Assembly (NCBI GenBank): GCA_029860345.1
Contig: JAOUBJ010000003.1
Location: 68,709-132,708, forward strand
Length of the DNA: 64,000 nt
Reading direction: 5' to 3'
DNA from: Candidatus Zixiibacteriota bacterium
GTDB taxonomy: Bacteria; Zixibacteria; MSB-5A5; GN15; FEB-12
Part shown: positions 6,112 to 51,590 of the stretch, in pieces
Layout of the letters: every line of letters starts with the position of its first letter
Numbering within the stretch: position 1 is the first letter of the stretch
Translations under genes and position numbers: made by a program
The notes under the pieces: generated by a model
What the model saw: only the letters and a program-made list of their open reading frames with translations
Told to the model about the DNA's origin: nothing
Database searches by the model: none

Positions 6112-6129
6112 GGGCTATCTATACCTCTG

Positions 6130-9420: not shown

Positions 9421-9443
9421 TCCCTAAGTTTTTCAACAGCCTG

Positions 9444-10319: not shown

Positions 10320-10328
10320 AGGCGTCTG

Positions 10329-11318
10329 CTACGGAACTTCTATAGTGTCGAAGATCTTCGCGACGATGTTGTCCGAGTCGATCTCCTCCGCCTCCGCTTC
10401 ATAGGTGATAATGACGCGATGGCGCAGCACGTCGTAGCCGACCGCCTTGACATCCTCAGGCGTGATGTAACCACGACCTTTCAGGAAAGCATGAGCCTTC
10501 GCAGCCAGGTTGAGATAGATCGATGCCCTGGGCGAAGCGCCGTAGGCGATCAGATCGGTCAGGTCGCCCAGACCATACTTGGCCGGTTCGCGCGAGGCAA
10601 AGACGATGTTGATGATATACTCTTTGACTTTGTCGTCGACGTAGATATCCCTGAGGACCTTCCGGGCATTCAGAATCTCGGTCGGCGTGACCACTTTTGA
10701 GACTTGCTCAACCAGGGCGCCGGTGTTACGATCCATAATCTCGCGTTCTTCAGCCGGGGTCGGATAGCCTATCTTTAGCATCAGCATAAACCGGTCAACC
10801 TGCGCTTCAGGCAAAGGGTAGGTACCCTCCTGCTCAATCGGGTTCTGTGTGGCCAGAACCAGAAAAGGCGCGTCCAACGGGAAAGTGGTTTCACCAATCG
10901 TAACCTGCCGCTCCTGCATCGCTTCCAACAAAGCCGACTGTACTTTGGCCGGGGCACGGTTTATCTCGTCGGCCAGAATAATATTGGCGAAGATAGGACC
11001 TTTTTTCACCGAGAACTCAGATGTCTGAGGATTGTAAATCTGCGTGCCAATCAGGTCAGCCGGCAAAAGATCGGGTGTAAACTGAAGCCTTTGGAACTTG
11101 GCATCGATGGCATCCGACAGCGTTTTTACCGATAGCGTTTTGGCCAAACCCGGCACACCCTGAATTAGGATGTGACCGTCGGCCAGAATTCCAATCAGGA
11201 GCCGGTCTATGAGATACTGTTGACCGACGATGACATTATGCATTTGCTGAGTCAATCGTTCAACAAATGACGACTCCTCTTCTACCTTGGCTTGAATTGC
11301 TTCAATGTCGATGTTCAT
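10329..11318 (-). CDS. MoxR-family AAA+ ATPase
   Basis: 329-aa ORF. Walker A-like GVPGLAKT, Walker B ILADEINRAPAKVQSALLEAMQERQVT, and family-typical VLATQNPIEQEGTYPLPEAQVDRF. Confidence 0.9.
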   Translation of the reverse strand: MNIDIEAIQAKVEEESSFVERLTQQMHNVIVGQQYLIDRLLIGILADGHILIQGVPGLAKTLSVKTLSDAIDAKFQRLQFTPDLLPADLIGTQIYNPQTSEFSVKKGPIFANIILADEINRAPAKVQSALLEAMQERQVTIGETTFPLDAPFLVLATQNPIEQEGTYPLPEAQVDRFMLMLKIGYPTPAEEREIMDRNTGALVEQVSKVVTPTEILNARKVLRDIYVDDKVKEYIINIVFASREPAKYGLGDLTDLIAYGASPRASIYLNLAAKAHAFLKGRGYITPEDVKAVGYDVLRHRVIITYEAEAEEIDSDNIVAKIFDTIEVP

Positions 11319-32338: not shown

Positions 32339-35300
32339 ATGAAAACTTGCGCCGTTGCACTATTGATGGTCTGTCTTATCGCCCCACTGGCGACATCCGC
32401 CGATCAAATCAAACAGATTGACCGGCCGGACCGACTGCCGTCGTTTCTCGGGTATAAATCAAATGAGTTTATTGTCGTCATGCGCCCTGATGTTGGCAAG
32501 CTGAGTACGCAAAAGGCGGCCAGCGGAATCGTCGCAATTGGCGAAACCGATTTCGACAATATATCAAAGCAATTCGTAGTTTCCCGTATCAAAAAACAGT
32601 TCCCGGGCACAGAGGCCGGTGCTCTGTCGCCAACCGCAGAACTGGCCAAATATCACAAAGTCAAATTCGAGCAAGGCACCCTGGATGAAGCTATGGAGGC
32701 CTATCGAAATCATCCGATGGTCGAAAAAGTAGAGCCGATCGGCATCCACACGATGCTTGCGACGCCGAACGACGGTTTTTTTGACCCCTATCAATGGTAT
32801 CACAATCAAACCAATGATGACGATTTGGATTCACCCGAAGCCTGGGACATCCAGACCGGCAGCTCTTCTTTCATCCTCGCGATTCTTGATTCCGGAACTC
32901 GTTACTATCACCGCGACCTTGGCGGCGGCAACACATCGCCGTCAAATGAAGCTGCCGCACGCGGTAATATGTGGATAAACAACGCCGAACTGAACGGTTC
33001 CACCGGCGTCGACGATGACGGTAACGGCTATACCGACGACTGGATCGGATATGACTTCATATCCTCGACCTCCAACTGTTGGCCCGGCGAAGACTGCAAT
33101 ACTCAAGACAATGATCCTCGCGACTTCAACGGCCACGGTACGCATACTGCGGGTATTGTTGGCATGATCACCAACAACGGCTACGGCATGGCCGGTGTTG
33201 CCGGCGGCTGGGGCAATGGTTCCGAACAGCAGTATGGCAACGGCGTGAAAGTTATGGCCTGTCGTATGGGCTTTTCCTATAATCACCCTCTATATGGTGA
33301 GGTTGGAGTGGTCTACATGGACGCTGCCGCAGAAGCGTTCTATTACGCCGCCGACAACGGAGCCAAAATCGCCTCGTGTAGTTGGGGTTCCTCCAACTCG
33401 GGCGGCATCGGCGCCGCAGCCAACTACTTCCTGAGCAATGGTGGTCTGATTTTTGTCGCCGCCGGTAACGACGGCACCCAGTCAGCCGACTATCTGAACG
33501 GACGTGGAGATTGTATCTCTGTTGCGGCTACCAATCAAAATGATGGAGCAGCATCCTTTACAACCTACGGCACCTGGGTGGATATCTGCGCCCCCGGTGT
33601 AGGCATCTACTCGACATATCATGATCACTATGATCCCAGTGTTGATTACTGGGCATCGATGGACGGCACCTCGATGGCCTGTCCGATGGCCGCCGCTGTA
33701 GGCGCCATGATATGGTCCCAGAATCCGACATGGACTGCTTCTCAGGTTGAAACTCAGCTATATGCCAGCGCCGAGAACATTGACGCCGAATTATCAGGAG
33801 CTTATATCGGCAAAATGGGCGCCGGCCGTATAAACCTATACGACGCCGTCAACACCGGTCCGCCCCCGCCTCCGGTAGCCGCCTTTGTCGGTTCTCCGAC
33901 TTCTGGTACCGAGCCGTTGACCGTGAACTTCACCGATCAGTCGACGGGCAGTATTACCGATTGGAGTTGGACTTTCGGCGACGGTGGTTCGTCAACATCT
34001 CAGAACCCGTCATACGAATACACTTCGGCGGGCACTTATGACGTCACCCTGACCGTGACCGGTCCCGGCGGTTCCGATGGCGAGACCAAGAATGGCTACA
34101 TCACAGTCAACCCCTGTGTAGCACCCACCGCCGACTTCTCAGGCAGCCCCACCTCGGGCACCGAGCCGTTGGATGTAAGTTTCACCGATCTCTCGACCGG
34201 CGCTACATCCTGGTCGTGGACCTTTGGTGACGGCGGAAATTCCACGCAGCAGAACCCCAACTACACCTATGACACAGCCGGTACCTACACGGTGACGCTG
34301 ACCGCTACCAACGCCTGCGGTTCCGATGTCAACACCAAGGTCGACTACATTACAGTCAACCCGTGCGTGTCACCGACTGCAGACTTCTCAGGCACACCGA
34401 CCAACGGCGAGGTTCCGCTGGATGTTTCGTTCACCGATCTCTCGACCGGCGCTACGTCCTGGTCGTGGACCTTTGGTGACGGCGGAAATTCCACACAGCA
34501 GAATCCGAACTACACCTACAACACAGCCGGTACCTACACGGTGACGCTGACCGCTACCAACGCCTGCGGTTCCGATGTCAACACCAAAGTGGATTACATC
34601 ACTGCCGATCCGTCCACCGCCGTCAACCAGGCCTTTGCACTTTCCGACATTCCGGTGAATGGCACCGCCTCGGGAAGCTACCTGAACACTCAGGCCAGCG
34701 ATGACTCCTACGAAGGTCTTACCGAAGGCGAGTCCGGCGGCAAACCGAGCCGACGTTACAGCACGCTCGATTGGAAATGGAACTTCTCGGTCATTGCCGG
34801 TGCTACGACCAGTTTCAATGTCGAAGCCTACCGTCCGGACAACGCCGAAGGTGACGACTTTGCATTTGAGTACTCCACCGATGACATCAACTACTCGTCG
34901 TTGGTAACGGTCACCTCTGCCGTTGAGCAGATGTATTCGGTGTCAATGCCCAATGTCAGCGGAACCGTTTACATCCGTTGCGTCGACACCGATCACACTC
35001 AGGGCGCACGAACTTTTGACGATGTGTTCATCGACTACATGTACATCGAAACAGGTGGCACTCCACCGCCGCCGGACACCATGCATGTCAACAGCATCAC
35101 GGTGACTCGCATCGGTGGCAAAGGTAACCGTTACAACGGCCAGGCGACTGTGACAATCCTCAACCAGTCCGGTCAACCGGTCGGTGGTGCCTCAGTCACT
35201 GGCGACTTCAGCGGCCCGTCCTCCGACACTCAAGGCGGCACAACCGATGGCTCAGGTTCGGTGACTCTCACCTCGCAGCGGATCAAGAGCCCGGTCGGTA

Positions 35301-35683
35301 ACTGGTGCTTTACGGTCACAGGTGTTTCGCTCGGCAGCAACGTCTACGATCCCTCGCAAAATGTCGAATCTTCCGACTGCGAAGGCGGCGCGGCCAAACT
35401 GGTCGACGGTTCGATGCCGTACACGTTCAATCTCGACCAGAACTATCCCAACCCGTTCAACCCGAAAACGTCGATCCGATTCAGTCTGCCGTCCTCGATG
35501 AACGTCCGGCTGGAAGTGTTCAATGTTCTCGGCCAAAACGTGGCGACCTTGTACGAAGGCACGCTCAACGCCGGGCTGCACGAGTACGAGTTTGACGCAT
35601 CCCATCTGTCCAGCGGTATCTACCTGTATCGTTTACAGGCGGATGACATGATTGAGACGAAGAAGATGGTTCTGATGAAATAG
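32339..35683 (+). CDS. Secreted subtilisin-like serine protease (S8) with three PKD domains and a T9SS C-terminal sorting domain
   Basis: 1114-aa ORF. Catalytic triad contexts ILDSGTRYYHRDL, HGTHTAGIV, GTSMACPMAAAVGAMI. Three PKD units (F.G.PTSGTEPL.V.FTD.STG....WSWTFGDGG.S..QNP.Y.Y..AGTY.VTLT). C-terminus NYPNPFNPKTSIRFSLP...GIYLYRLQADD. Confidence 0.9.
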   Translation: MKTCAVALLMVCLIAPLATSADQIKQIDRPDRLPSFLGYKSNEFIVVMRPDVGKLSTQKAASGIVAIGETDFDNISKQFVVSRIKKQFPGTEAGALSPTAELAKYHKVKFEQGTLDEAMEAYRNHPMVEKVEPIGIHTMLATPNDGFFDPYQWYHNQTNDDDLDSPEAWDIQTGSSSFILAILDSGTRYYHRDLGGGNTSPSNEAAARGNMWINNAELNGSTGVDDDGNGYTDDWIGYDFISSTSNCWPGEDCNTQDNDPRDFNGHGTHTAGIVGMITNNGYGMAGVAGGWGNGSEQQYGNGVKVMACRMGFSYNHPLYGEVGVVYMDAAAEAFYYAADNGAKIASCSWGSSNSGGIGAAANYFLSNGGLIFVAAGNDGTQSADYLNGRGDCISVAATNQNDGAASFTTYGTWVDICAPGVGIYSTYHDHYDPSVDYWASMDGTSMACPMAAAVGAMIWSQNPTWTASQVETQLYASAENIDAELSGAYIGKMGAGRINLYDAVNTGPPPPPVAAFVGSPTSGTEPLTVNFTDQSTGSITDWSWTFGDGGSSTSQNPSYEYTSAGTYDVTLTVTGPGGSDGETKNGYITVNPCVAPTADFSGSPTSGTEPLDVSFTDLSTGATSWSWTFGDGGNSTQQNPNYTYDTAGTYTVTLTATNACGSDVNTKVDYITVNPCVSPTADFSGTPTNGEVPLDVSFTDLSTGATSWSWTFGDGGNSTQQNPNYTYNTAGTYTVTLTATNACGSDVNTKVDYITADPSTAVNQAFALSDIPVNGTASGSYLNTQASDDSYEGLTEGESGGKPSRRYSTLDWKWNFSVIAGATTSFNVEAYRPDNAEGDDFAFEYSTDDINYSSLVTVTSAVEQMYSVSMPNVSGTVYIRCVDTDHTQGARTFDDVFIDYMYIETGGTPPPPDTMHVNSITVTRIGGKGNRYNGQATVTILNQSGQPVGGASVTGDFSGPSSDTQGGTTDGSGSVTLTSQRIKSPVGNWCFTVTGVSLGSNVYDPSQNVESSDCEGGAAKLVDGSMPYTFNLDQNYPNPFNPKTSIRFSLPSSMNVRLEVFNVLGQNVATLYEGTLNAGLHEYEFDASHLSSGIYLYRLQADDMIETKKMVLMK
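34106..34603 (+). repeat. Near-identical 249-bp tandem duplication (PKD units 2 and 3) inside the S8 protease gene
   Basis: gtcaaccc(c/g)tg(t/c)gt... begins at 34106 and again at 34355. The copies differ at only a few positions over long stretches, e.g. gtttcaccgatctctcgaccggcgctac(a/g)tcctggtcgtggacctttggtgacggcggaaattccac. Confidence 0.85.
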
Positions 35684-39781: not shown

Positions 39782-40090
39782 AGTTTACCGAGGCCACGCC
39801 AAGCGCGTGGCTTCGCAGGGCGTATTTTCATCTCCTGCAGCGGACTGGCACACAACGCCCACGATAGTACTTGGTGTTCTTTCTCCACGATCCAGCCCAC
39901 CCCGGCCCTGGATGACTCAAATGTGATACGCTCAACGTTTTGTGGAACAGTGAGTTCGGATCACGGCGAGAACTATTTTGCTTTTCCTCGCATGCCGCTG
40001 ACAGACTGTGGCAGTGACCTTTTGTATAATTCCGATGCACACGGAGAAGAAGACAACATCAACCTCCATCCGGAGTCGAAGACAGGAGAC

Positions 40091-40678
40091 ATGGATATGT
40101 CCCATTCACCCAGCCGTGATTCAACAGGACCGAGCGGCTATCGCTCCCATCTGATTAAAGCCGTCATCTATTTTGTCGTTATCGGTGGTGGCGTCGCTAC
40201 CGGCATTGTGGTTGCAACAAAACTCGGCGTTGCCGACAAACTTTCGTCGATGACGTATTCTGTCGAAGATCTCGACAACAACAGCCTTCTAAAGGTCGAA
40301 TCACCGTTTCCTCTGCTTGAGGCAACCGGTGTCGATGGCGACACTGTCGACCTCGTACCGCTCTTGAAAGGGCAACGGTGTGTCGTGGCCATAGTATCTG
40401 CCGGGTGCGAACCTTGCCACCGATTTATCCGATTTGCTGAGCGGGAGGGCATCGGTACCAATGACGATCTGCGCGTTATCCTGCTGGCCCTCGATCCGGA
40501 GCCGTTCAAAGAGGAAACTGACCTCACGGTGCTGAAGGTTTCGATGGATCAACTAAACGAGCACGACATATACTCTTTCCCCACCTTAATCGGCATAGGC
40601 AAGGATGGGCGCATGAAATTTGTGGCTTCCGGGTTCAACCGATACATCACCGAGGATTTCATCCGCGACAATATCTGA
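40091..40678 (+). CDS. Membrane-anchored thioredoxin-fold thiol:disulfide oxidoreductase (TlpA/ResA-like), CEPC active-site motif
   Basis: ATG at 40091 lies 5 nt after AGGAGA. One TM (LIKAVIYFVVIGGGVATGIVVA). Redoxin-like GDTVDLVPLLKGQRCVVAIVSAGCEPCHRF and a cis-Pro region YSFPTLIGIGKDGRM. The track start at 39923 has no SD. Confidence 0.6.
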   Translation: MDMSHSPSRDSTGPSGYRSHLIKAVIYFVVIGGGVATGIVVATKLGVADKLSSMTYSVEDLDNNSLLKVESPFPLLEATGVDGDTVDLVPLLKGQRCVVAIVSAGCEPCHRFIRFAEREGIGTNDDLRVILLALDPEPFKEETDLTVLKVSMDQLNEHDIYSFPTLIGIGKDGRMKFVASGFNRYITEDFIRDNI

Positions 40679-40710: not shown

Positions 40711-40959
40711 ATGAAACGTTTACTTTTGATCGGAACTGTTTTTTGTGCCGCGGCTTTGTTGGGGTTCGGCGTAACCCTGTTCATGCCGCCCGATGCACAG
40801 GCGACAGAATGTAACCACAGCTACCCACAGACGGTGTGGGATTGCAGCAGTGGGACCTGTAATTTCCCTCTCTGTGCTAAGTACGATTGCTTCACCGTGA
40901 CCCCATGTTGTGGAGAACCGTGCCAATGTACGTTCGTCGGCTGCTTTCTCAAACCGTGA
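40711..40959 (+). CDS. Secreted Cys-rich mini-protein, array member a (82 aa, 10 Cys in the predicted mature part)
   Basis: AAGGAGG lies 7 nt upstream. MKRLLLIGTVFCAAALLGFGVTLFMPPDAQA | TECNHSYPQTVWDCSSGTCNFPLCAKYDCFTVTPCCGEPCQCTFVGCFLKP. Confidence 0.8.
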   Translation: MKRLLLIGTVFCAAALLGFGVTLFMPPDAQATECNHSYPQTVWDCSSGTCNFPLCAKYDCFTVTPCCGEPCQCTFVGCFLKP

Positions 40960-41000
40960 CTTGAGACTGACCCGATAAGTTTGAACCTGTGGCCACAATC

Positions 41001-41031
41001 GGCCGGGGCTGCTCGGCAGAGCAGCCCGGCC
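41001..41031 (+). terminator. Post-gene hairpin after member a
   Basis: ggccggggctgctc-ggca-gagcagcccggcc. A 13-bp GC-rich stem with one bulge and no clear T-run. Confidence 0.45.
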
Positions 41032-41204
41032 AATATGGATTACGGGCCAGCGGTCCCATGCGGTTCGAGAAACAAAAAAGGTCGAAACAACCAACTGATG
41101 AGCGATAGACGATCGCGTCCGTCGGGTTCGGCCGAACACCTATGGGAGGGATACTCAACAAAGACAGTTAGACTCAAAACTTCTGACACACCATGGAGGG
41201 ATGT

Positions 41205-41468
41205 ATGAAACGTTTTCTTTTGATCGGAACTCTGTTCTGTACCGCGGCTCTGCTTGGACTTGGGATCACGCTGTTCCTGCCGTCCGAGGCAGGAGCCTGG
41301 GAATGCGACGAAACTACTCGCATAACGATGTTCAAGTGCGTTTCCGACGAGTGTACCGATCCGAACTTTCCGGTGGAAAAACTGGACTGCGGTTCCAGCA
41401 ATCCACCGGGACACTATTGCGATTGTTACCATGTCAGTTGCCAGTTGCGGTGCCCGCCGGGCTGGTAG
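41205..41468 (+). CDS. Secreted Cys-rich mini-protein, member b (87 aa, 8 Cys)
   Basis: Start moved to the conserved ATG after GGAGG. MKRFLLIGTLFCTAALLGLGITLFLPSEAGA | WECDETTRITMFKCVSDECTDPNFPVEKLDCGSSNPPGHYCDCYHVSCQLRCPPGW. Confidence 0.8.
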   Translation: MKRFLLIGTLFCTAALLGLGITLFLPSEAGAWECDETTRITMFKCVSDECTDPNFPVEKLDCGSSNPPGHYCDCYHVSCQLRCPPGW

Positions 41469-41510
41469 ACCCGTGACCAGATAGGCTGAACCAGCGCTCA
41501 TCAATGGTGA

Positions 41511-41534
41511 AGGCTGCTCCATCCGGGGCAGCCT
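41511..41534 (+). terminator. Conserved post-gene hairpin after member b
   Basis: aggctgctcc-atcc-ggggcagcct, preceded by the conserved taggctgaacc.gcgctcatca block. Confidence 0.5.
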
Positions 41535-41631
41535 GGTCAAAATGACGGGCGCAGGTGAAGTCGGAACTTTGGATCATCGAAGTTTCCGAAGTTTTCAATG
41601 ACGAATGCGGACAGCGGTGTCAATCGGATTC

Positions 41632-41701
41632 AGCCGACACCTGATGGAGGGATTTCTCAACGAAGTCAGTTAGATTCACAACTTCAAACAAACCATGGAG
41701 G
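41632..41701 (+). promoter_or_regulatory. Conserved ~70-nt 5' leader upstream of array member c
   Basis: agccgacacctgatggagggatttctcaacgaagtcagttagattcacaacttcaaacaaaccatggagg. It recurs at 42139-42208 with one mismatch. A diverged version lies upstream of member b. Confidence 0.55.
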
Positions 41702-41707
41702 TTTTGT

Positions 41708-41980
41708 ATGAAACGTTTTCTTTTGATCGGAACTCTGTTCTGTACCGCGGCTCTGTTCGGACTCGGGATCACGCTGTTCCTGCCGTCCGACGCATACGCG
41801 GGGATCTGCATAGAAGCCGAACGACAGGCCTACTTCGACTGCGCCGACGCGGCATGTTCGCCCCCGACACCGGTGGGTGTTTATGACTGCGGAACCTGGG
41901 ACGGTGGCAACGACCCCGGTGGTCCTTGCAATTGTCAATTCATCCGCTGCCAGTTGAAGTGCCCGCCCCCACCGCTGTAG
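41708..41980 (+). CDS. Secreted Cys-rich mini-protein, member c (90 aa, 8 Cys)
   Basis: MKRFLLIGTLFCTAALFGLGITLFLPSDAYA | GICIEAERQAYFDCADAACSPPTPVGVYDCGTWDGGNDPGGPCNCQFIRCQLKCPPPPL. Confidence 0.8.
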   Translation: MKRFLLIGTLFCTAALFGLGITLFLPSDAYAGICIEAERQAYFDCADAACSPPTPVGVYDCGTWDGGNDPGGPCNCQFIRCQLKCPPPPL

Positions 41981-42026
41981 TGGTGGCCTGACACACCAGG
42001 CTGAATCCACGCCCGTCATTGATCCA

Positions 42027-42048
42027 GGCTGCTCCAGACGGAGCAGCC
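42027..42048 (+). terminator. Conserved post-gene hairpin after member c
   Basis: ggctgctcc-agac-ggagcagcc. A perfect 9-bp stem followed by gggtttgaaag. Confidence 0.5.
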
Positions 42049-42138
42049 GGGTTTGAAAGCCGAGCGTGAGCCTGGCCTTGGTGCTTGACAATGGGATATG
42101 CCGGTGATGAGTGCTTGACGTGAGTGTCATTCGGACTA

Positions 42139-42208
42139 AGCCGACACCTGATGGAGGGATTTCTCAACGAAGTCAGTTAGATTCGCAACTTCAAACAAAC
42201 CATGGAGG
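42139..42208 (+). promoter_or_regulatory. Second copy of the conserved 5' leader, upstream of member d
   Basis: Identical to 41632-41701 except a->g at one position. It ends in the shared acttcaaaca(a/g)accatggagg SD block found before members b-g. Confidence 0.55.
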
Positions 42209-42213
42209 TATGT

Positions 42214-42483
42214 ATGAAACGTTTTCTGTTGGTCGGTGCGTTGTTCGGCACAGCAGCATTGTTGGGATTCGGGATAGTACTGTTCTTGCCAACCGACGCC
42301 TCGGCCACCTGGTGCGACACTAATGACCGGTTCACTTGGTTTGACTGCGACGATCCGGTTTGCTCGGAACCGACACAGGTTGGTGTTTATGACTGCGGGT
42401 CTGACTGGTTCCCCTGGGGTCGTCTTCCCTGCGACTGCGTTTTCATCCGTTGCCAACTAAAATGCCCGACGCCGCTGCCTTGA
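42214..42483 (+). CDS. Secreted Cys-rich mini-protein, member d (89 aa, 8 Cys)
   Basis: MKRFLLVGALFGTAALLGFGIVLFLPTDASA | TWCDTNDRFTWFDCDDPVCSEPTQVGVYDCGSDWFPWGRLPCDCVFIRCQLKCPTPLP. Confidence 0.8.
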   Translation: MKRFLLVGALFGTAALLGFGIVLFLPTDASATWCDTNDRFTWFDCDDPVCSEPTQVGVYDCGSDWFPWGRLPCDCVFIRCQLKCPTPLP

Positions 42484-42543
42484 TGGCGTAAGGGTGTGGT
42501 TGTCATTGGACCTACGAATCGAAACAAACCATGGAGGTTTTGT

Positions 42544-42816
42544 ATGAAACGTTTTCTTTTGATCGGAACTCTGTTCTGTACCGCGGCTCTCTTCGGACTC
42601 GGGATTACACTGTTCCTGCCGTCCACCGCCGTAGCCTGTCATTGCGACGAGAATGACCGGCAGCCCTGGTTCGACTGTGAAGACCCCGGTTGCACGCCGG
42701 AATTACCCGTCGGCCTTTATGACTGCGGAACATGGGACGGTTACTGCATCCCCCCCGGGACTCCCTGCAACTGTCAGTTCGTCCGCTGTCAATTGAAGTG
42801 CCCGACTCCGATTTAG
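42544..42816 (+). CDS. Secreted Cys-rich mini-protein, member e (90 aa, 10 Cys)
   Basis: MKRFLLIGTLFCTAALFGLGITLFLPSTAVA | CHCDENDRQPWFDCEDPGCTPELPVGLYDCGTWDGYCIPPGTPCNCQFVRCQLKCPTPI. Confidence 0.8.
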   Translation: MKRFLLIGTLFCTAALFGLGITLFLPSTAVACHCDENDRQPWFDCEDPGCTPELPVGLYDCGTWDGYCIPPGTPCNCQFVRCQLKCPTPI

Positions 42817-42861
42817 TAATAGCTTGACCCTTTAGCTTGAACCTGCGCTCATCATTGGCCG

Positions 42862-42885
42862 AGGCTGCTCCGTCCGGGGTGGCCT
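42862..42885 (+). terminator. Degenerate copy of the post-gene hairpin after member e
   Basis: aggctgctcc-gtcc-ggggtggcct followed by tgtttgaag. Confidence 0.4.
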
Positions 42886-43049
42886 TGTTTGAAGATGAAG
42901 CACAGGTGAAACCTGAATTATAGAAGATTGGAGTCACCAATGACGGGCGCAGACAACACTGTCTATCGGGTTCAGCCGGGACTCGACGGAGGCCTTCCTC
43001 CGTGACAACATTCAGTTTCACAACTTCAAACAAACCATGGAGGTACGTT

Positions 43050-43310
43050 ATGAAACGTTTTCTTTTGACCGGTACGGTTTTTTGTGCCGCCGCCATTCTT
43101 GGGATCGGAGTCACTCTGTTCCTTCCCAGCAACGCCGTTGCTTGTATATGTGACTTTTACGACCCCCAAGTGATGTTCGAGTGCGACAGTCCGCTCTGTT
43201 CAGCCCCGACCCCGCACGCCCTCTTTGATTGCTTCACCTGTGTAGGAACGGGCGCTCCGTGCAGCTGCACATTTAGGGAATGTCGGACTAGGTGTCCCAA
43301 CCCGATCTAA
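43050..43310 (+). CDS. Secreted Cys-rich mini-protein, member f (86 aa, 10 Cys)
   Basis: MKRFLLTGTVFCAAAILGIGVTLFLPSNAVA | CICDFYDPQVMFECDSPLCSAPTPHALFDCFTCVGTGAPCSCTFRECRTRCPNPI. Confidence 0.8.
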   Translation: MKRFLLTGTVFCAAAILGIGVTLFLPSNAVACICDFYDPQVMFECDSPLCSAPTPHALFDCFTCVGTGAPCSCTFRECRTRCPNPI

Positions 43311-43355
43311 GGGTAGTCTGACATCATAGGCTGAACCCACGCTTGTCATTGGCTG

Positions 43356-43379
43356 AGGCTGCCCCATCCGGGGCAGCTT
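43356..43379 (+). terminator. Conserved post-gene hairpin after member f
   Basis: aggctgcccc-atcc-ggggcagctt. A 10-bp stem including one G-U pair, followed by cgtttgaat. Confidence 0.5.
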
Positions 43380-43544
43380 CGTTTGAATACCGAGCGCGGA
43401 GACGGTCTTGATATGTGACAATTGGAATTGCCGATGATGGGTGCTTGACAACGGTGTCATGCTAGTTCAGCCGACAACTTGAAGGGGCTTTCCACCACGC
43501 TAAACTGTAACATTTGAACTTCAAACAGACCATGGAGGTATGTT

Positions 43545-43805
43545 ATGAAACGTTTTCTGAAGGTTGGTATGTTGTTCTGTACCGCCGCCATTCTCGGGAT
43601 GGGAATCACTCTATTCCTTCCAGGCAATGCCTCAGCTTGCATTTGTCTCCCCGAGGTCTGGCAACCGTTATACGATTGTGACAGTCCGCTTTGTTCAGAA
43701 CCTACTCCGCACGCCGTATATGACTGTGGCACTTGTTCAGGATCAAGCAATCCGTGTGGCTGCGTCTTTAAGGAATGTCGCACGAGATGCGTCATCGAGC
43801 CGTAA
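43545..43805 (+). CDS. Secreted Cys-rich mini-protein, member g (86 aa, 10 Cys)
   Basis: MKRFLKVGMLFCTAAILGMGITLFLPGNASA | CICLPEVWQPLYDCDSPLCSEPTPHAVYDCGTCSGSSNPCGCVFKECRTRCVIEP. Confidence 0.8.
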   Translation: MKRFLKVGMLFCTAAILGMGITLFLPGNASACICLPEVWQPLYDCDSPLCSEPTPHAVYDCGTCSGSSNPCGCVFKECRTRCVIEP

Positions 43806-43850
43806 CGATAGTATGATACTTTAGGCTGAACCCACGCTCATCATCGGTAG

Positions 43851-43884
43851 AGGCTGCTCCATCCGGGGCAGCCTTGCTTTATTT
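43851..43884 (+). terminator. Conserved post-gene hairpin plus T-rich tract after member g (end of array)
   Basis: aggctgctcc-atcc-ggggcagcct followed by tgctttatttgtgg. Confidence 0.55.
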
Positions 43885-43952
43885 GTGGATTTGCGCGATA
43901 GCTGGCTCTGCCGCCGGACAGACACAGACAACCACCATGATAGGCCGTCCAA

Positions 43953-45905
43953 TCAGTTATTGAGTCCGAGCGCTTGTTTCAGTTGGTTTATTTTGGCCAG
44001 CAACCGCGTGTCATTTGGCCTGAGCCTGTATAGCTGCTCGTATTGGTACAGCGCCGAGTCCAGTTGCCCCTCCTGGTCAAAAATATACCCCAGGCGATCA
44101 TAACCCGGTGCGAAATCCGGCGCGTACTGTATGGTAGTTCGGAAGTACTGTCTGGCTGCCTCAATGTCATTGTTCAGTTGGGCAATTCGCCCGAGGCTGA
44201 AATTGTACTGGGGATATACCGGAAACTTCTGAAGCCCAGCCTCTAAGATACTCTTCGCCTTGTCAATCTGATTGGACTTCATGTACGTTTTCCCAAGGTT
44301 TTCATACAACTGCATATTGTCCGGCGACAACCGAAGCGCCCGCTCCATATACATGGCCGCTTGATCATAGTCCGCCCGGTTGTGGTAACTGTTTCCCACA
44401 AACCCGGCAAAGAAAGAGCGATTGGTGGGCGAATCAATGTCTCCTCCGATGTTCAATACTGCCAGCAATAACGCCAAAACGGTCAGACCGACCCAGAAGA
44501 AGCGGCGGTCCGAATGAAAATATCCTATCAGACCCCGGCCTCCGTAAACGGCAAAAACCACGGCCAGTGGCAAGACTGGTTGGCGAAAACGGGCACAGAC
44601 AAAGAAGGCCGTCACAACTAAGGCCATCCCGACGACATAGGCCAGGGGAACGAACAAGTCCAGCCTCTCGCGCCGCGCATAAAAGAACCCCAGGAAAGCC
44701 AGTCCGAAGATCAGCCCGGTGGGGAAATTGAGAGCGTACTTCCATAGAGCCAATCTCATAAACCAGGAATACTCACCGCTGTAATACAATGAGTAGTTGT
44801 TGATAATCTCCTGACCATGGAAGAAATAGTAGAATTTCCTGACCACCCGAACCGCTGCCGCCATCGGCTCCTCTGTCATTTCCTTCACCGTTTCACCAAA
44901 CCAAAAACTGGAGACTTCGCTTTCTCTGAACTTCCGCCCCGCCCGGCGCTCGGCTTCATCAACCGAGGCAGTCCATACATTGTCACGGTACTTGCCCATG
45001 CGCAGTGGTGGCCCGGGCGACTTGACGGTGATTCCGTCTGCTTCTGAGTTGTTGCCGATATAGAAGTTCACTCCACCCTGGGTCGAGATCAGAACAAACT
45101 CCCCCCCCTTCGTCACATTAGCCAGGGTTACCGGAAGAATCGGTAGAGAGATTCCCAGTAGAAACCAAAGGCTCGGCAACATGAGCATCTTGCGGTTGGA
45201 CCATCCACTCTTCAACAAGAGAGCTACCGGAAGAATGATCAAAAGGGGAAGTATCGTCGGTCTTGTGATTGCTGCCAAGCCCAGGACAACACCGGCAACG
45301 AGACTGTTCCGCAACCGGGGGGAGTTGACCGCGATATAGCTGCAGTAGATTGCCAGCATGTAGAGAAACACTGTCATCGTTGTCATCAGTGTCTCCCCTT
45401 CGTAGAAAATCAAAGTCGGATACACCGCTACTACAGCAGCAGCCCAAAGGGCCAATCGCCGACCGATAAGCTTCGTTGCGAAACGGTAAGTCACAACGAC
45501 TGTCAACAGACCCAGAATGTTCTGGAAAACGACAACCGGCCACGGTGATACGCCAAACCACTGGTACAATTGAGCCACCGTGTACGGGTAAAGTGGAGCC
45601 CGAAAAAAAGGGCTGTCCATCTTAACTCCGTTCAGAATATCCAGCGCCCAGGTATGATAGGCTTGGCTGTCGAGCAGGTAATTGCCCCAGAAAATACTGC
45701 CGGCCAGATCAATGTCGTAGAGACCACGAAGCAACGCACCCACGGCAATGATGATAAGCAGGGACTTGTGTTCGATCCAGAATGGTTGCGATCGGGTAGA
45801 CGGCTTCGGTCCTTTTCGATCTCGCCTGTTCTTCAATCGGTCCTCCGTTGGAGCGTTTTGAGCCTTGGGGACTCCGGCGATAACCGGTCCCGGTTGCTCT
45901 GCCAC
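43953..45905 (-). CDS. Polytopic GT39-like (ArnT/PMT_2-type) glycosyltransferase fused to C-terminal TPR repeats
   Basis: 650-aa ORF. About 11 hydrophobic helices with PMT_2-like segments (FFRAPLYPYTVAQLYQWFGVSPWPVVVFQNILGLLTVVVTYRFATKLIGRRLALWAAAVVAVYP). C-terminal TPRs (YHNRADYDQAAMYMERALRLSPDN..., YENLGKTYMKSNQIDKAKSILEAGLQKFP...). Confidence 0.6.
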   Translation of the reverse strand: MAEQPGPVIAGVPKAQNAPTEDRLKNRRDRKGPKPSTRSQPFWIEHKSLLIIIAVGALLRGLYDIDLAGSIFWGNYLLDSQAYHTWALDILNGVKMDSPFFRAPLYPYTVAQLYQWFGVSPWPVVVFQNILGLLTVVVTYRFATKLIGRRLALWAAAVVAVYPTLIFYEGETLMTTMTVFLYMLAIYCSYIAVNSPRLRNSLVAGVVLGLAAITRPTILPLLIILPVALLLKSGWSNRKMLMLPSLWFLLGISLPILPVTLANVTKGGEFVLISTQGGVNFYIGNNSEADGITVKSPGPPLRMGKYRDNVWTASVDEAERRAGRKFRESEVSSFWFGETVKEMTEEPMAAAVRVVRKFYYFFHGQEIINNYSLYYSGEYSWFMRLALWKYALNFPTGLIFGLAFLGFFYARRERLDLFVPLAYVVGMALVVTAFFVCARFRQPVLPLAVVFAVYGGRGLIGYFHSDRRFFWVGLTVLALLLAVLNIGGDIDSPTNRSFFAGFVGNSYHNRADYDQAAMYMERALRLSPDNMQLYENLGKTYMKSNQIDKAKSILEAGLQKFPVYPQYNFSLGRIAQLNNDIEAARQYFRTTIQYAPDFAPGYDRLGYIFDQEGQLDSALYQYEQLYRLRPNDTRLLAKINQLKQALGLNN

Positions 45906-48421: not shown

Positions 48422-49165
48422 TTACCACAGGTCGGCGGGAAAGGTGATAGCGATTTTCACGTCGGCTTGCGGCGTTACGCTCACGGAAAAAGTCGTTGTA
48501 TCATTGTCGGGCAGGTATACGACCCTAAGGGTCTGATTGCCTGCCGGTATACCGACAAACGAGAAGCCGCCCTGAATCGTGGGATTGATCATACTCGTGG
48601 TCGTACTGCCGACGCCATCGGGATACGTCAGATGAATCTCCAACGAGTCGGAGTAAACAGCACCCGGCATTTCATCGTCGGCATCTACTATGTATCCGTC
48701 AACCGTGTTGCTCAGCAGAGCAGCGGTAGACGTTGCGAGAAGTTTGTCGATGTTCGATCCCGATCCGGTCGAACGAATGAGTGAATCGGAGTAGGTGTAT
48801 AACACGTTCCAACCATCCGTCTTGAATTCGTTCAGATCGATTCCGCGATTAATATAGGGTCCATCCCAGGTTGAGTATCCACCCGCGTTGGTCACCAAGG
48901 CATCCAGGTTGGGCGGCAACGACCCAACATCGCCGACATACCCAAAATCCGTTCGGCTGCTCTCGCTGTATAGATTCGTGTTACCGGCAATAGCTTCGGC
49001 CAGCGCATTCATTTCTTTCAGGGTGTGCTCGTACCTGGCCGTTTCCACCGAGGTCGACAGTTTGCGCACGGCCACCGTAGCCAGTATACCGACGATTATT
49101 ATCACCATGACCAGCTCTATCAGCGTGAAACCCCGGTTGTTGCGAAGGGACAAGATCACTGGCAA
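48422..49165 (-). CDS. Type IV pilin/T2SS pseudopilin-like protein (prepilin N-terminal motif) with a CarboxypepD_reg-like C-terminal domain
   Basis: 247 aa. MPVILSLRNNRG|FTLIELVMVIIIVGILATVAV. Shared block DFGYVGDVGSLPPNLDALVTNAGGYSTWDGPY. C-terminal GYIVDADDEMPGAVYSDSLEIHLTYPDG...GFSFVGIPAGNQTLRVVY. Confidence 0.75.
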   Translation of the reverse strand: MPVILSLRNNRGFTLIELVMVIIIVGILATVAVRKLSTSVETARYEHTLKEMNALAEAIAGNTNLYSESSRTDFGYVGDVGSLPPNLDALVTNAGGYSTWDGPYINRGIDLNEFKTDGWNVLYTYSDSLIRSTGSGSNIDKLLATSTAALLSNTVDGYIVDADDEMPGAVYSDSLEIHLTYPDGVGSTTTSMINPTIQGGFSFVGIPAGNQTLRVVYLPDNDTTTFSVSVTPQADVKIAITFPADLW

Positions 49166-50340
49166 GCTCCAAAACTGATGGCGAAAGTCGAACCGTCGGA
49201 TAAAAGCACCGTCACACTCACATTCGACATGTCCACATTGGCTCCCCCAACAGGGTTAGCCTCGAACGTCTCGATCTGCACTCGGGCACTGTCCCCATCG
49301 GCAACCGCCTGGCCGACAGAGAAGGACGCCAGCTCACCGCTGCCTGCTTTCGGGTTGTTGGAGTCGAACACTGTCGTGCCGTTCCACCTGACATAGCGAT
49401 AATAAGCGGTCGGTGTTGCATAGGTCAAAGTGATACTGTTAACCGAGACCAGACTGCCGCTGTTATTGATTACCCAGAACGAAAAATTGTTGCACTGCGG
49501 CGTGGTGTACACACTGTCGCGTCCGGCCATACTTTCCAGACCGCTGCCACCGGCGCCTGAGACCGCCCAAACATCCGAGGGTAAACCATACTCGCCGTAG
49601 GGCGACGACGCCGGTAAAACCGAAACGAACCGGGTCAGGCTGTCATCGTTGGGCATGTAGACTATCTGAATGTCGTGGTTGCCTACCGGAACGGAGTCGA
49701 ATGAAAAGTACCCACCGACATCGACGGTTGACACCTTGCCAACCATTCCGCCGGTACCGTTGGGAATGGTCAAGGTCACCTCGACAGAATCCATATAGGT
49801 CGGACCGGGTGGCGTACCATCGCGGTCGGAGACAACACCACGAACCTGATTGAAGGTAAAATCGTTTACACTTTTGCCAAGCGTGCGGACAATGTCGGAG
49901 CCGGAGCCGCTGGAAGTTATATTAACCCCAGCATAGTCGTAGTTGACCCCCCAGGCGTCTGTCTTATAGTCGTCGACTTTCTGCGTAAACTCATCGACGA
50001 TGTAGGGACCGTTCCAGGTTGAGTAACCGCCGGGGTTGCTCTTGAGGGCATCCAAATCCGGGGGCAAGGCGCCAACGTCCCCGACATATCCAAAATCGGA
50101 ACGCACACTGTTGTTAGCCAGGGCCGGGTTGCCGACCATCGAAAAAGCCAGCGCCTGCAACTCCTGTTTGGTCTCCTCGACTTTTGCCGTGTCGGACAGA
50201 GTGATAGCCGAACGCAGTGCGACACTAGCCAGAATGGCGCCAATTACGACCACAATGATCACTTCGATCAGAGTGAAACCGGAACGATTGAAAATTCTGT
50301 GTGGCAACCGCGCCTGCATAACAGACCTCACCAAAATCAA
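49156..50340 (-). CDS. Prepilin-like protein, paralog 2 (394 aa, extended C-terminus)
   Basis: ...NRSG|FTLIEVIIVVVIGAILASVAL. DFGYVGDVGALPPDLDALKSNPGGYSTWNGPY. GVVSDRDGTPPGPTYMDSVEVTLTIPNG...GYFSFDSVPVGNHDIQIVY. Overlaps its neighbours by 10 and 4 nt. Confidence 0.75.
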   Translation of the reverse strand: MILVRSVMQARLPHRIFNRSGFTLIEVIIVVVIGAILASVALRSAITLSDTAKVEETKQELQALAFSMVGNPALANNSVRSDFGYVGDVGALPPDLDALKSNPGGYSTWNGPYIVDEFTQKVDDYKTDAWGVNYDYAGVNITSSGSGSDIVRTLGKSVNDFTFNQVRGVVSDRDGTPPGPTYMDSVEVTLTIPNGTGGMVGKVSTVDVGGYFSFDSVPVGNHDIQIVYMPNDDSLTRFVSVLPASSPYGEYGLPSDVWAVSGAGGSGLESMAGRDSVYTTPQCNNFSFWVINNSGSLVSVNSITLTYATPTAYYRYVRWNGTTVFDSNNPKAGSGELASFSVGQAVADGDSARVQIETFEANPVGGANVDMSNVSVTVLLSDGSTFAISFGACQ

Positions 50341-51590
50341 TTACTGTACGCCACTTCCACCCACATCTGTGTGCATCGAGCGGGATGGGTAGCCTTACTG
50401 GTTTTCAATTGAGCGCCGATCTCCAGGTCAATCAGTTCGGTCCAGGTCCAGGCGACTCCGGTGAACGGATTGGCGACCCATAGTTGACTGTGATCCAGGA
50501 AATCGTCAGTCAGGGTTTCTTCAGCGCCGTTGTAATCGGTCCCATTGGTGCGCATGACAATCTGTGCATGGGCGTCTTTGACAAATCTGCGCGCCCGCAT
50601 GTAGACGGTTATCGAACTGATACTGCACGAAGTGTCACTCGGATCAGTGATGGCGTAAATGTCTCTCAGATAAGTCAGGCTGTTTGACTCTACGTAGGTG
50701 ACATTTGAGTCGCTGACCACTTCATCGACACACTGATAGTTCGACCCGCAACCGCTGGTCTGGAGTTCTGCGGCACTGCCTGCTGCCACCGGCCGCAAAG
50801 CCATGCTGCCGGAACCTGCGCAACCTCCGCCCGCGAAGTAGGCTGAGGCAAATTTGTAACTAACCGGACTTTTGTGCCGGGGAAGAATAGTGACATATCG
50901 CAATAGGGTATCGACATTCGGTGTGTATATCAGTCGCACCGGATGCGTGCCCACGGGCAGTGAGTCCAGGGTGAAGGCACCGACCGCGTCCGGTGTGTAG
51001 CTCTTGGTTGCCGAGCCGCCGACTCCGTTCGGTATCGTCACGGTGATATCGACAGAGTCCATGTAGATAACACCCGGCAACGAGTCATCGGCGTCAAGGA
51101 TTGTGCCATCCAGACTGTTGAGTGTATGGTCAGCAACCTGGTCGGCGATCTTGTGGGTCAGTGTCGATCCACTTCCGGATGATTGAATGGCCACACCACC
51201 GGTGTATGCATACAGTGTCCCCCACTCGTCCGTCTTGAATCCGACCGCGTCCTCGCTGATTCCGGGTGGCAGGTAGGGACCATCCCAGGTGCTGTATCCA
51301 CCCGGGTTTTCGTAAAGGGCTTGCAGACTGGCCGGGAAACTCCCGACATCGCCCACATACCCAAACTCCGCCCGCTGCCCGTTGCTTTTGATCGATGGAT
51401 CCCCCACGATGGCCCGAGCCAGCATCTCCATCTCGCGCTCGGTTGCCACCCGCCTGGCATCCTGCACCATCACCGTGGCCGACTGCATAGCCACGGCCGC
51501 CAGCACGCCGATTATGATAATCACGATGGTCAGCTCGATCAGCCCGAAGCCGTGGTTGTTATGAAGTCTGGGTAGCATCAATCTCACCAC
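50337..51590 (-). CDS. Prepilin-like protein, paralog 3 (417 aa, extended C-terminus)
   Basis: ...HNNHG|FGLIELTIVIIIIGVLAAVAM. EFGYVGDVGSFPASLQALYENPGGYSTWDGPY. GTILDADDSLPGVIYMDSVDITVTIPNG...AFTLDSLPVGTHPVRLIY. Confidence 0.75.
   Translation of the reverse strand: MVRLMLPRLHNNHGFGLIELTIVIIIIGVLAAVAMQSATVMVQDARRVATEREMEMLARAIVGDPSIKSNGQRAEFGYVGDVGSFPASLQALYENPGGYSTWDGPYLPPGISEDAVGFKTDEWGTLYAYTGGVAIQSSGSGSTLTHKIADQVADHTLNSLDGTILDADDSLPGVIYMDSVDITVTIPNGVGGSATKSYTPDAVGAFTLDSLPVGTHPVRLIYTPNVDTLLRYVTILPRHKSPVSYKFASAYFAGGGCAGSGSMALRPVAAGSAAELQTSGCGSNYQCVDEVVSDSNVTYVESNSLTYLRDIYAITDPSDTSCSISSITVYMRARRFVKDAHAQIVMRTNGTDYNGAEETLTDDFLDHSQLWVANPFTGVAWTWTELIDLEIGAQLKTSKATHPARCTQMWVEVAYSN

Follow-up and report, generated by a model that had tools for sequence, protein, structure and literature searches.

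What do seven small, cysteine-rich proteins do when they are exported from the same cell and encoded one after the other, and which part of the locus can tell? This question is raised by a stretch of 64,000 nucleotides (nt) from a Candidatus Zixiibacteriota bacterium (contig JAOUBJ010000003.1, positions 68,709 to 132,708 of the forward strand), referred to here as the window; all coordinates are those of the window unless the handle of another locus, such as L010, precedes them. The original prediction, made from the letters of this DNA, had described a tandem array of seven secreted mini-proteins with a conserved leader and a divergent disulfide core, and had read this combination as the signature of toxins or bacteriocin-like peptides under diversifying selection. 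The answer put forward here starts from a gene that this prediction had not seen, a thioredoxin-like partner encoded directly ahead of the array, which is the main clue to function. The overall best explanation, to which a probability of roughly one half is given, is that the locus is an oxidative-folding module, made of an enzyme and its substrates, that gives stable extracytoplasmic binding proteins.

A mini-protein family and its thioredoxin-like partner

The seven open reading frames (ORFs), named a to g, all lie on the + strand at the starts first reported and encode precursors of 82-90 amino acids (aa): a (40711-40959, 82 aa), b (41205-41468, 87 aa), c (41708-41980, 90 aa), d (42214-42483, 89 aa), e (42544-42816, 90 aa), f (43050-43310, 86 aa) and g (43545-43805, 86 aa). 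A GGAGG ribosome-binding site is found 5-8 nt 5′ of the ATG in all seven, and NCBI locus tags OEV49_04115 to 04135 correspond to five of the seven proteins. Recounting reproduced the features on which the array had been recognised. Each precursor starts with MKR(F/L)L and carries an AxA motif at residues 29-31 (AQA, AGA, AYA, ASA, AVA, AVA and ASA from a to g), the mature parts contain 10, 8, 8, 8, 10, 10 and 10 cysteines, respectively, and the framework C-x10-C-x4-C-x9-11-C-xn-C-x-C-x4-C-x3-C holds throughout, copy a lacking only its last cysteine (Cys 8). In the protein alignment of the seven copies the mean column identity is 65%. Invariant positions comprise M1, K2, R3, L5, G8, F11, A14, A15, G18, G20, L23, F24, P26, A29 and A31 of the leader, which in d contains no cysteine, and seven cysteine columns of the mature part.

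A search of the window with the family profile matched exactly these seven ORFs (E 1e-27 to 1e-35). Because each copy matches the profile and no other ORF of the window does, chance is ruled out, and the array stands as a true protein-coding family in which the leader is conserved, the disulfide core divergent and the cysteine framework invariant. Only a few metagenomic lineages possess the family. The sequence collections searched total about 15 billion proteins; a word-indexed search of 5.8 billion clusters returned only nine non-self relatives, and an exhaustive hidden Markov model search of 1.84 billion representatives gave 24 matches, all of 79-97 aa save one spurious eukaryotic protein. 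The similarity of a 960-aa eukaryotic chitin-binding-like repeat protein in the profile search (E 2e-5) was judged compositional. The pooled family amounts to about 46 distinct sequences. GTDB representative genomes yield one locus only, and a scan of JGI metagenomes with the partner protein found three loci. By sequence, the mini-proteins have zero matches in Pfam, NCBIfam, PADLOC and the PDB, even at permissive thresholds, and no Pfam defensin or toxin match at E<=5 was obtained among 37 members. A tblastn search against plasmids and phages found nothing, and a mobile origin of the module was rejected on this ground. Literature searches did not find a paper describing such a bacterial family. 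The earlier statement that no described bacterial family has this framework thus survived comparison with Pfam, NCBIfam, PADLOC, the PDB, structural searches of the PDB and BFVD, and the literature. Both the protein family and the two-gene module to which it belongs are previously undescribed and are present in a few uncultivated lineages.

The partner gene (40091-40678, + strand) encodes a TlpA/ResA-like thiol-disulfide oxidoreductase of 195 aa with a transmembrane (TM) helix containing GxxxG, a CEPC active site and a cis-Pro loop, FPT. The mechanical ORF starts further upstream, at a GTG at 39923, and would encode 251 aa; because homologues are shorter (184-193 aa) and a promoter-like region lies inside the longer ORF, the true start is most likely 40091. 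This region (39998-40030, + strand) is the candidate promoter/operator of the operon and consists of the 17-bp palindrome CTGACAGACTGTGGCAG (39998-40014) and a TATAAT box (40025-40030). The palindrome occurs once in the window against an expectation of 0, and it is kept 5′ of the partner gene in L002, L005, L019 and L022, which makes five genomes with the window; it is probably an operator for a regulator.

The class of the oxidoreductase emerged from profile and structure comparisons. A profile search of the PDB retrieved ResA at E 4e-6. The AlphaFold2 (AF2) model, with a predicted local distance difference test score (pLDDT) of 73.7, was matched by Foldseek to TlpA (1jfu, 4txo), ResA (1st9), Etrx, StoA and DsbE at probability 1.0, with a TMt of up to 0.72 (ResA 1st9), a best E of 3.5e-7 and 14-23% identity to these known structural relatives. 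Residues G34, G38, C106, C109, P164 and T165 are invariant, and so are the motifs GC(E/Q)(P/A)C, which reads CEPC in the window, and (F/Y/S)PT in seven oxidoreductase homologues. A hydrophobic helix is predicted at residues 16-44, with basic residues ahead of it. Together, sequence and model place the protein in the TlpA/ResA structural class as a predicted outward-facing, membrane-anchored oxidoreductase. It has no NCBIfam match at E<=1, hence no MauD model was matched, and its scores against Pfam Redoxin and AhpC-TSA fall below threshold. The oxidoreductase family, with 8 clusters, is as rare as the mini-protein family; a weak relative, P0049, has no mini-protein gene downstream and is probably outside the family.

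In every contig with sufficient upstream sequence, one or more mini-protein genes lie 3′ of the oxidoreductase gene on the same strand, separated from it in most loci by some 35 nt (range 26-36 nt) and in L010 by 214 nt. Flanking genes vary between lineages, and only the gene pair is conserved. A single mini-protein gene is found in the folP-cdaA-trx-x-lepA context in L001-L006, L018 and L019, and two are found there in L022. Single copies also occur beside genes for an extracytoplasmic function (ECF) sigma factor and a ZAS-type anti-sigma factor (L011-L013, L017). Larger numbers are seen in a cut contig, L020 (L020/L021, at least five copies), in the window (seven copies) and between an M28 peptidase gene and the ATP synthase operon in L010/L015, where the array reaches 18 copies. 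Within the 18-gene array, a 585-nt gap (L010 5275-5859) holds no family ORF in any forward frame; it could represent a degenerate copy or the insertion of an element. In L011 (2860-4064) and L017 (243-1519) the anti-sigma factor adjoining the module together with the ECF sigma factor is a membrane protein with an N-terminal HxxxCxxC motif, and in L011 the module is directly followed by the gene of a TetR regulator and by an RND efflux operon. The ECF-sigma-linked loci, L011 and L017, hint at a connection with envelope stress.

The tight linkage of the two genes, their identical rarity and the chemistry of the partner suggest that the oxidoreductase and the mini-proteins are related as enzyme and substrates, and it is likely that they form a disulfide module of this kind.

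Cysteine pattern, leader and the proposed module

Further support for disulfides came from the distribution of cysteines across the family. Among 46 members, the mature part contains 8 cysteines in 37, 10 in five, 6 in one and an odd number in three. The even counts first noticed in the seven copies are therefore a family-wide property (43/46), and the same is true of the coupling of two additional cysteines, since a cysteine at position +1 is always accompanied by an extra one in the loop after Cys 4 (7/7 sequences), in e, f and g as well as in three other lineages. Framework Cys 2 and Cys 8 are absent together in four sequences, and Cys 2 occupies either of two alternative columns, about 4 columns apart, never both. 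Cysteines that are gained and lost in pairs are expected to be disulfide partners; on this basis C2 is proposed to bond with C8, and a fifth disulfide would link residue +1 with the loop that follows Cys 4.

The original prediction had proposed structure modelling, and the AF2 model of the copy c precursor, built on a 37-sequence alignment, is a confident one (pLDDT 90.4), with a predicted helix at residues 3-24 followed by a three-stranded sheet (strands 33-44, 56-65 and 73-82). Foldseek found no similar fold in the PDB or BFVD for this model, small disulfide-rich folds being hard for this program. The mature peptides are all acidic (net charge -2 to -6, isoelectric point (pI) 4.1-4.8) and rich in proline and aromatics, with 3-9 aromatic residues each; their loops are rich in Pro, Ser and Thr. 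These properties led to the rejection of two known classes. A cysteine-stabilised alpha-beta defensin was discarded, as the defensin order, with CxxxC (helix) ahead of CxC (strand), is reversed here (C-x-C-x4-C-x3-C), the mature model is free of helix and the charge of -2 to -6 is not cationic. A metallothionein-like protein was discarded because of the 3-9 aromatics, the confident beta-sheet model, the paired gain and loss of cysteines and their even counts.

The same cysteines could serve another chemistry. The mini-proteins might be thiol-redox or metal-handling clients (copper, zinc or a redox relay) of a TlpA-like reductase, as ScoI and CoxB are of TlpA and apocytochrome c is of ResA. All of the partner's closest solved relatives, among them the TlpA-ScoI mixed-disulfide complex 4txo, are extracytoplasmic reductases, the partner's CEPC active site is the same as that of ResA, and the C-x-C and C-x3-C spacings on an acidic surface would suit metal binding. 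Yet the paired gain and loss of cysteines, with even counts in 43 of 46 members, fits disulfides better than sites of three or four cysteines, and C2 shifts by about 4 columns or vanishes together with C8. No His or Met is conserved in the alignment of the 46 members, and the motifs of Fe-S, haem (CxxCH), ferredoxin and rubredoxin proteins are absent from the mini-proteins. The confident, aromatic-rich beta-sheet is unlike metallothioneins. Moreover, no electron donor of the CcdA/DsbD type was found in the subset of window ORFs that was scanned. On balance, a role in metal handling or redox relay is quite improbable.

The leader is built of MKR, about 21 hydrophobic residues and P-x-x-A-x-A, and shows the basic n-region, the hydrophobic h-region and the small residues at -3 and -1 of a Sec signal. 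Alanine occupies position -1 in 96% of the 46 members, together with a small residue at -3 and a proline 4-6 residues upstream, as in signal peptidase I sites; on the strength of this conserved AxA site and the upstream proline, the leader is taken as cleaved, and signal peptidase would cut after residue 31. Export by the twin-arginine translocation (Tat) pathway was rejected, since RR is present in 3/46 members only. A lipoprotein was also rejected: the leader cysteine follows a phenylalanine, which makes no lipobox, and many members have no cysteine there. What is unusual for a Sec signal is the degree of conservation. Family-wide, the mean entropy is 1.67 bits in the leader against 2.56 bits at the non-cysteine positions of the mature part, and over the 46 members A14 and G18 are conserved at 100%, A31 at 96%, F11 at 93% and G20 at 87%. 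The invariant A14/G18 of the leader and the GxxxG of the enzyme's TM helix suggest docking between the two helices, so that the leader may also hold the precursor to the oxidoreductase before release.

The conservation of A14, G18 and F11, unusual for a disposable signal peptide, can be read differently, namely that the mini-proteins remain uncleaved as bitopic membrane proteins, tethered at the outer face of the inner membrane in a complex with the oxidoreductase, where they might serve as interchangeable specificity or sensor subunits, perhaps tied to the ECF sigma/anti-sigma pair. A hydrophobic core of about 21 residues, modelled with its surroundings as one helix (residues 3-24), the invariant GxxxG in the partner's TM helix and the adjoining ECF sigma and membrane ZAS-type anti-sigma genes in L011 and L017 would all agree with such an anchor. 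Against it stand the family-wide signal peptidase I site and the cysteine at +1, whose pairing with the loop cysteine in seven sequences would make most sense with residue +1 as a free N-terminus; permanent tethering is thus very improbable.

The oxidative-folding module proposed here would work as follows. The precursor of about 85 aa would be exported by Sec and, still tethered by its leader, would meet the co-encoded oxidoreductase, docking through A14/G18 of the leader and GxxxG of the TM helix. The oxidoreductase would then form or proofread the disulfide pattern, and signal peptidase would set free, outside the cytoplasmic membrane, a highly stable product, an acidic three-stranded beta-sheet of about 55 residues held by four disulfides (five in a, e, f and g). 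As to what these products do, a tentative proposal, with the odds somewhat against it, is that they constitute a repertoire of rigid periplasmic binding or inhibitor modules, defensive in nature, with no offensive toxin.

Private oxidoreductases that serve one client family have precedents. MauD is membrane-anchored and is encoded beside its client. This thioredoxin-fold protein is required for methylamine dehydrogenase's small subunit, which contains six disulfides (bioRxiv 10.64898/2026.03.05.709764). Judged by analogy, MauD/MauA is the closest Gram-negative precedent, since in both cases a CxxC thioredoxin-fold protein would mature a small disulfide-rich periplasmic protein. The differences are that no MauE-like gene is adjacent here, that the partner has no NCBIfam match, and that the mini-proteins are multi-copy, diversified and built on another cysteine framework, with neither an enzyme subunit nor a tryptophan tryptophylquinone context. 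With TlpA, ResA, StoA, Etrx and CcmG, which serve one or few dedicated clients, the partner shares the fold, a predicted N-terminal anchor, the CxxC motif (CEPC, as in ResA) and the cis-Pro loop. The known clients of this group, apocytochrome c, ScoI, CoxB, SpoVD and MsrAB, are unrelated to the mini-proteins.

Ancient types at one locus and the toxin reading

The repeated copies carry traces of their origin. A conserved block of about 80 nt found 5′ of b, c, d, f and g turned out to be a relic of the 3′ end of the oxidoreductase gene (41091-41173, 41595-41675, 42101-42182, 42937-43019 and 43431-43514, respectively, all on the + strand). The relic ahead of f translates to SIGFSRDSTEAFLRDNI, to be compared with SSGFSRHITEDFLRDNI in the intact gene of the relative L005. 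Each relic is preceded by a spacer of about 50-60 nt that separates it from a hairpin at the end of the preceding unit (41030-41090, 41534-41594, 42049-42100, 42885-42936 and 43378-43430). These spacers open with a GTTTGAA-like motif and are otherwise poorly conserved; the motif appears to be what is left of the -35 element belonging to the lepA promoter, which in single-copy genomes lies behind the terminator. The relic at one end and this remnant at the other indicate that the duplication unit began within the enzyme gene and ended shortly beyond the terminator. Between d and e there are only 60 nt, with neither relic nor stem arm, a layout from which d and e are seen to have duplicated differently and to share one unit. 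By these sequence marks, the array arose as the second gene in a two-gene module multiplied in tandem.

The copies themselves have diverged far. In their mature part the mean proportion of synonymous differences (pS) is 0.81, that is, saturated, so that Nei-Gojobori estimates cannot be used for most pairs of paralogues; where measurable, omega is 0.2-0.5. Among b, c and e, the leader pS is only 0.14-0.25, against the saturated mature part. The near-identity of these three 5′ ends had been reported at the outset and is real: over nt 1-93 there are 8 mismatches between b and c, 10 between c and e and 11 between b and e, and identity collapses after the cleavage site, with 14-18 mismatches in the next 30 nt. 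In part it is an effect at the nucleotide level, given that the leader pS is low and that the block continues into the non-coding relic and stem arm. The abrupt change in pS points instead to gene conversion or to a nucleotide-level constraint at the 5′ end, rather than to protein-level selection alone.

Comparisons between genomes were more informative. In L005, L018 and L019 the oxidoreductase genes are 87-96% identical (synonymous divergence, dS, 0.14-0.23) and the spacers 94-100%, yet the mature parts of the mini-proteins are only 37-52% identical, with saturated pS (0.76-0.93). Conversely, L018 and L002 carry the same mini-protein type, at 78% nt identity and with a proportion of nonsynonymous differences (pN) of 0.088 in the mature part against a pS of 0.75, and their oxidoreductase genes are only 68-73% identical. 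Some window copies are closer to proteins of other metagenomes than to the rest of the array, b resembling P0009 and d resembling P0012. On this pattern of sequence identities, the copies are ancient types, each under purifying selection, and they have been retained differentially, or exchanged, at a single locus, where balancing or frequency-dependent selection may maintain them. Diversifying selection, as originally proposed, was not borne out. The analysis of dN/dS by region that had been suggested gave values below 1 wherever they were measurable, and no positive selection was demonstrated: pS is saturated in the mature part, omega is 0.2-0.5 where measurable, and purifying selection is strong within the type shared by L002 and L018.

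These results bear directly on the idea that the mini-proteins are secreted toxins or bacteriocin-like peptides aimed at competitors, grazers or hosts, with the array as a diversified arsenal and the thioredoxin as a folding accessory like PedC for pediocin. A conserved leader followed by a divergent disulfide core does resemble conotoxin and defensin gene families, near-identical strains carry different types at one locus, as would be expected under frequency-dependent selection, in L011 the module is immediately followed by an RND efflux system that includes an outer-membrane factor, and disulfide bacteriocins are known to have thioredoxin-like accessory proteins (PMC4919988). The loci and the peptides, on the other hand, lack what such systems bring with them. 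At no locus is there an immunity gene, an ABC/PCAT exporter or a double-glycine (GG) leader. Antisense ORFs across the array have no Pfam match, the intergenic spaces consist of relics, stem arms and hairpins only, and single-copy loci run straight to lepA. The neighbourhood folP-cdaA-...-lepA is a conserved housekeeping one, with no plasmid or phage match. As a cargo of the type IX secretion system (T9SS) indicates a presumably diderm host, a Sec signal alone would reach the periplasm only, and the mini-proteins have no T9SS sorting domain. Finally, all mature peptides are acidic (pI 4.1-4.8) and dN/dS is below 1 wherever measurable. The toxin or bacteriocin signature that had been claimed is therefore not upheld at these loci, and a secreted toxin is unlikely. 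Two specific classes were set aside as well: a class II bacteriocin or microcin, because the leader ends in AxA without GG and neither an adjacent ABC exporter nor a linked immunity gene is present, and an array of precursors of peptides made by the ribosome and modified after translation (RiPPs), because the only conserved neighbour is the thioredoxin-like gene and the leader is of the Sec type.

Oxidoreductases associated with small secreted disulfide peptides include the Bdb proteins of sublancin and SdbA. In the pediocin system, PedC/PapC are thioredoxin-like accessory proteins of disulfide bacteriocins (PMC4919988). The likeness to the locus described here is that an oxidoreductase is encoded with, or needed for, small disulfide peptides. 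These systems differ in being Gram-positive, with double-glycine leaders, ABC exporters, immunity genes and cationic peptides of 1-2 disulfides, none of which is seen here.

A second comparison concerns the logic of many paralogues with a conserved leader and a divergent mature part, which the mini-proteins share with conotoxins and prochlorosins without homology to them. Conotoxins also have a fixed cysteine framework, and their folding is assisted by specialised protein disulfide isomerases; in the prochlorosin system (ProcA/ProcM) one enzyme handles dozens of substrates through the leader. Conotoxins and prochlorosins rely on an endoplasmic reticulum signal plus propeptide or on a RiPP leader, whereas here a Sec signal with AxA is used. 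Further, no lanthionine synthetase or radical-SAM enzyme is present here, and positive selection is not demonstrated for the mini-proteins. A model for the defensive-repertoire reading is offered by the acquired interbacterial defence clusters of Bacteroidales, which contain tandem arrays of orphan periplasmic immunity genes (bioRxiv 10.1101/471110). Likewise tandem and strain-variable, these encode small exported proteins without a cognate toxin nearby, in a host of the FCB group. They differ in that they comprise unrelated families on mobile elements with recombinases, whereas the mini-protein array consists of one family with a dedicated oxidoreductase at a conserved chromosomal site, without PADLOC, phage or plasmid match.

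Probable gene-bracketing RNA stems and the wider locus

The sequence right after each stop codon, with the consensus GGCTGAACCCACGCTCATCATTGG, is complementary to two segments of the relic, and in copy a and in the single-copy genomes this type of arm pairs with the 3′ coding end of the oxidoreductase gene itself. The predicted stem consists of a 14-bp helix and an 8-10-bp helix with a small hairpin between them, and it encloses the entire ORF (about 22-24 bp in all); a GC hairpin follows the 3′ arm. Six units of this kind can be drawn on the + strand of the window. In unit a, the 5′ arm (40600-40640) lies within the 3′ coding end of the oxidoreductase gene, and the 3′ region (40979-41029) comprises the arm 40979-41002, whose helix A is degenerate, and the hairpin 41005-41029. 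In unit b, the 5′ arm is 41091-41133 and the 3′ region (41484-41533) comprises the arm 41484-41507 and a hairpin without U tract (41512-41533). Unit c pairs 41595-41635, where GGATTCAGCC is compensated by GGCTGAATCC in the 3′ arm, with 41999-42022, followed by the hairpin 42027-42048 (3′ region 41999-42048). The joint unit of d and e pairs 42101-42142 with 42834-42858, followed by the hairpin 42863-42884 (42834-42884), and unit f pairs 42937-42977 with 43329-43352, followed by the hairpin 43357-43377 (43329-43377). In unit g, finally, 43431-43472 pairs with 43824-43847, and the hairpin 43852-43873 is followed by GCTTTATTTG, a U tract (43824-43885).

Pairing statistics were obtained on eleven units from five genomes (nine units in a first version). 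The arms pair in 84.7% of cells, compared with 31-41% when the partner is slid. Ten stem pairs have changed on both sides, a number reached in 2/500 shuffles, and the covariation score was equalled in 1/500. When whole units were folded, the long-range stem appeared in both the minimum free energy and the centroid structures of f (42930-43385, z = -4.87) and g (z = -2.88). An equivalent architecture with a different sequence is seen in L011 and L017, where the enzyme is only about 30% identical: the last five enzyme codons pair with a site 22 nt (L011) or about 36 nt (L017) after the mini-protein stop, as a perfect 15-bp duplex in L011 that differs in L017 through compensating changes. Taken together, these patterns of complementarity make it likely that the RNA stem is real.

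The conserved inverted-repeat arms and the GC hairpin in the intergenic regions invite the idea that what has been conserved is a non-coding repeat unit, for instance a repetitive extragenic palindrome (REP), a miniature inverted-repeat transposable element or an integron attC-like site, and that the ORFs are incidental; the order of the arms between neighbouring genes is indeed superficially attC-like. The pairing itself decides otherwise, as in 5/5 units the 5′ arm forms a better duplex with the 3′ arm of its own unit than with that of the unit before, that is, the arms pair across the gene and not across the spacer, and in single-copy loci the 5′ arm is coding sequence of the partner. An intergenic attC-like or REP-like element was rejected on the basis of this preference, and integron attC sites were rejected because GCTGAAC/GTTCAGC each break RYYYAAC/GTTRRRY at one position and no integrase was found among the scanned ORFs. 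The ORFs, for their part, have ribosome-binding sites and protein-profile matches at E 1e-27 to 1e-35, they keep invariant cysteine columns where synonymous sites are saturated, they yield a confident AF2 fold, and their single-copy homologues in other genomes are under purifying selection. The probability that they are incidental is practically negligible.

As for transcription, no sigma-70-type promoter above chance was found inside the array, and among the unit hairpins only that of g (43852-43873), which has a good U tract, was reported in the terminator scan. This hairpin, the last, is the probable terminator of the operon, and as no other unit hairpin has a good U tract, the array probably forms a single operon. 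Rfam gave 0 matches in the whole window. The geometry of the stems recalls the stalks from which 16S and 23S rRNA are processed, which are duplexes that flank a gene. The likeness to RNase III processing stems lies in a duplex of about 22-24 bp whose strands flank an entire gene, with a stable hairpin on its 3′ side; the difference is that here the 5′ arm lies inside the coding sequence of the upstream gene and that Rfam has no match. By this resemblance, stems and hairpins may serve the processing of the substrate mRNAs, or their stabilisation relative to the enzyme mRNA. It is also plausible, from their sequence, that the conserved flanks act as handles for homologous recombination, which would alter copy number and the resident type.

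Several points weigh against the proposed folding module and should be read together. The pairing of enzyme and substrates is drawn from gene linkage and co-distribution, the disulfide pairings derive solely from the patterns of cysteine gain and loss, and the role as binder or inhibitor is argued mainly from absences and from acidity. The closest solved relatives of the partner (TlpA, ResA, StoA and Etrx) are reductases. The hydrophobic core of the leader, about 21 residues, is long enough for a membrane anchor. Regarding the stems, the eleven units used for covariation are related, and phylogenetic non-independence inflates the shuffle statistics; further, the first gene of the 18-copy array in L010 showed no equivalent stem.

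A bolder version of the folding module casts it as the bacterial equivalent of a venom peptide library. One membrane-anchored enzyme would dock the conserved leaders through TM helices and oxidatively fold a repertoire with a new four-disulfide fold, ancient specificity types would be shuffled between strains by recombination in the flanks, and the expression of each gene would be set by an RNA stem that arose twice, from different sequences. The combination is rather unlikely to hold in full.

The remainder of the window shows the setting of the array. Between the array and lepA, a convergent gene (43953-45905, - strand) encodes a PMT_2 (ArnT/PMT-like) glycosyltransferase with C-terminal TPR repeats; this insertion is found only in this genome, L001-L006 and L022 running straight to lepA. 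Upstream of the module, two large secreted peptidases are encoded, one a C25 gingipain-like peptidase (27595-31488, - strand), the other an S8 subtilase (32339-35683, + strand) that bears PKD repeats and, at its C-terminus, a sorting domain for type IX secretion. Elsewhere, the window contains a BatA/BatD-type 'aerotolerance' operon with genes for a TPR protein, BatD, two VWA proteins, a DUF58 protein and a MoxR AAA_3 ATPase (1762-11318, - strand), and three pseudopilin-like genes with N-terminal methylation motifs (48422-51590, - strand). A 358-aa ORF (56598-57674, + strand) encodes a LIM domain (Pfam E 1e-15) joined to a DA1-like peptidase domain (E 3e-12), which is the architecture of the plant ubiquitin-dependent peptidase DA1 and is unexpected in a metagenome-assembled genome of Zixibacteria.

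Exported disulfide-rich mini-proteins with a private oxidoreductase are of a known kind; the over-conserved leader and the gene-bracketing RNA stems are unexpected. If the proposed reading is true, the family would provide a new, compact and apparently very stable bacterial disulfide scaffold, of about 55 residues with 4-5 disulfides and without a fold match in the PDB, which nature has already diversified and which would be relevant to peptide engineering. It would also add a new private oxidoreductase, together with its client family, in a phylum without cultured members, and its signal peptide may double as a recognition handle. The gene-bracketing stems found in two lineages would represent a testable case of post-transcriptional control within an operon, and the locus would be a natural experiment in birth-and-death evolution, in which types are swapped at one chromosomal site.

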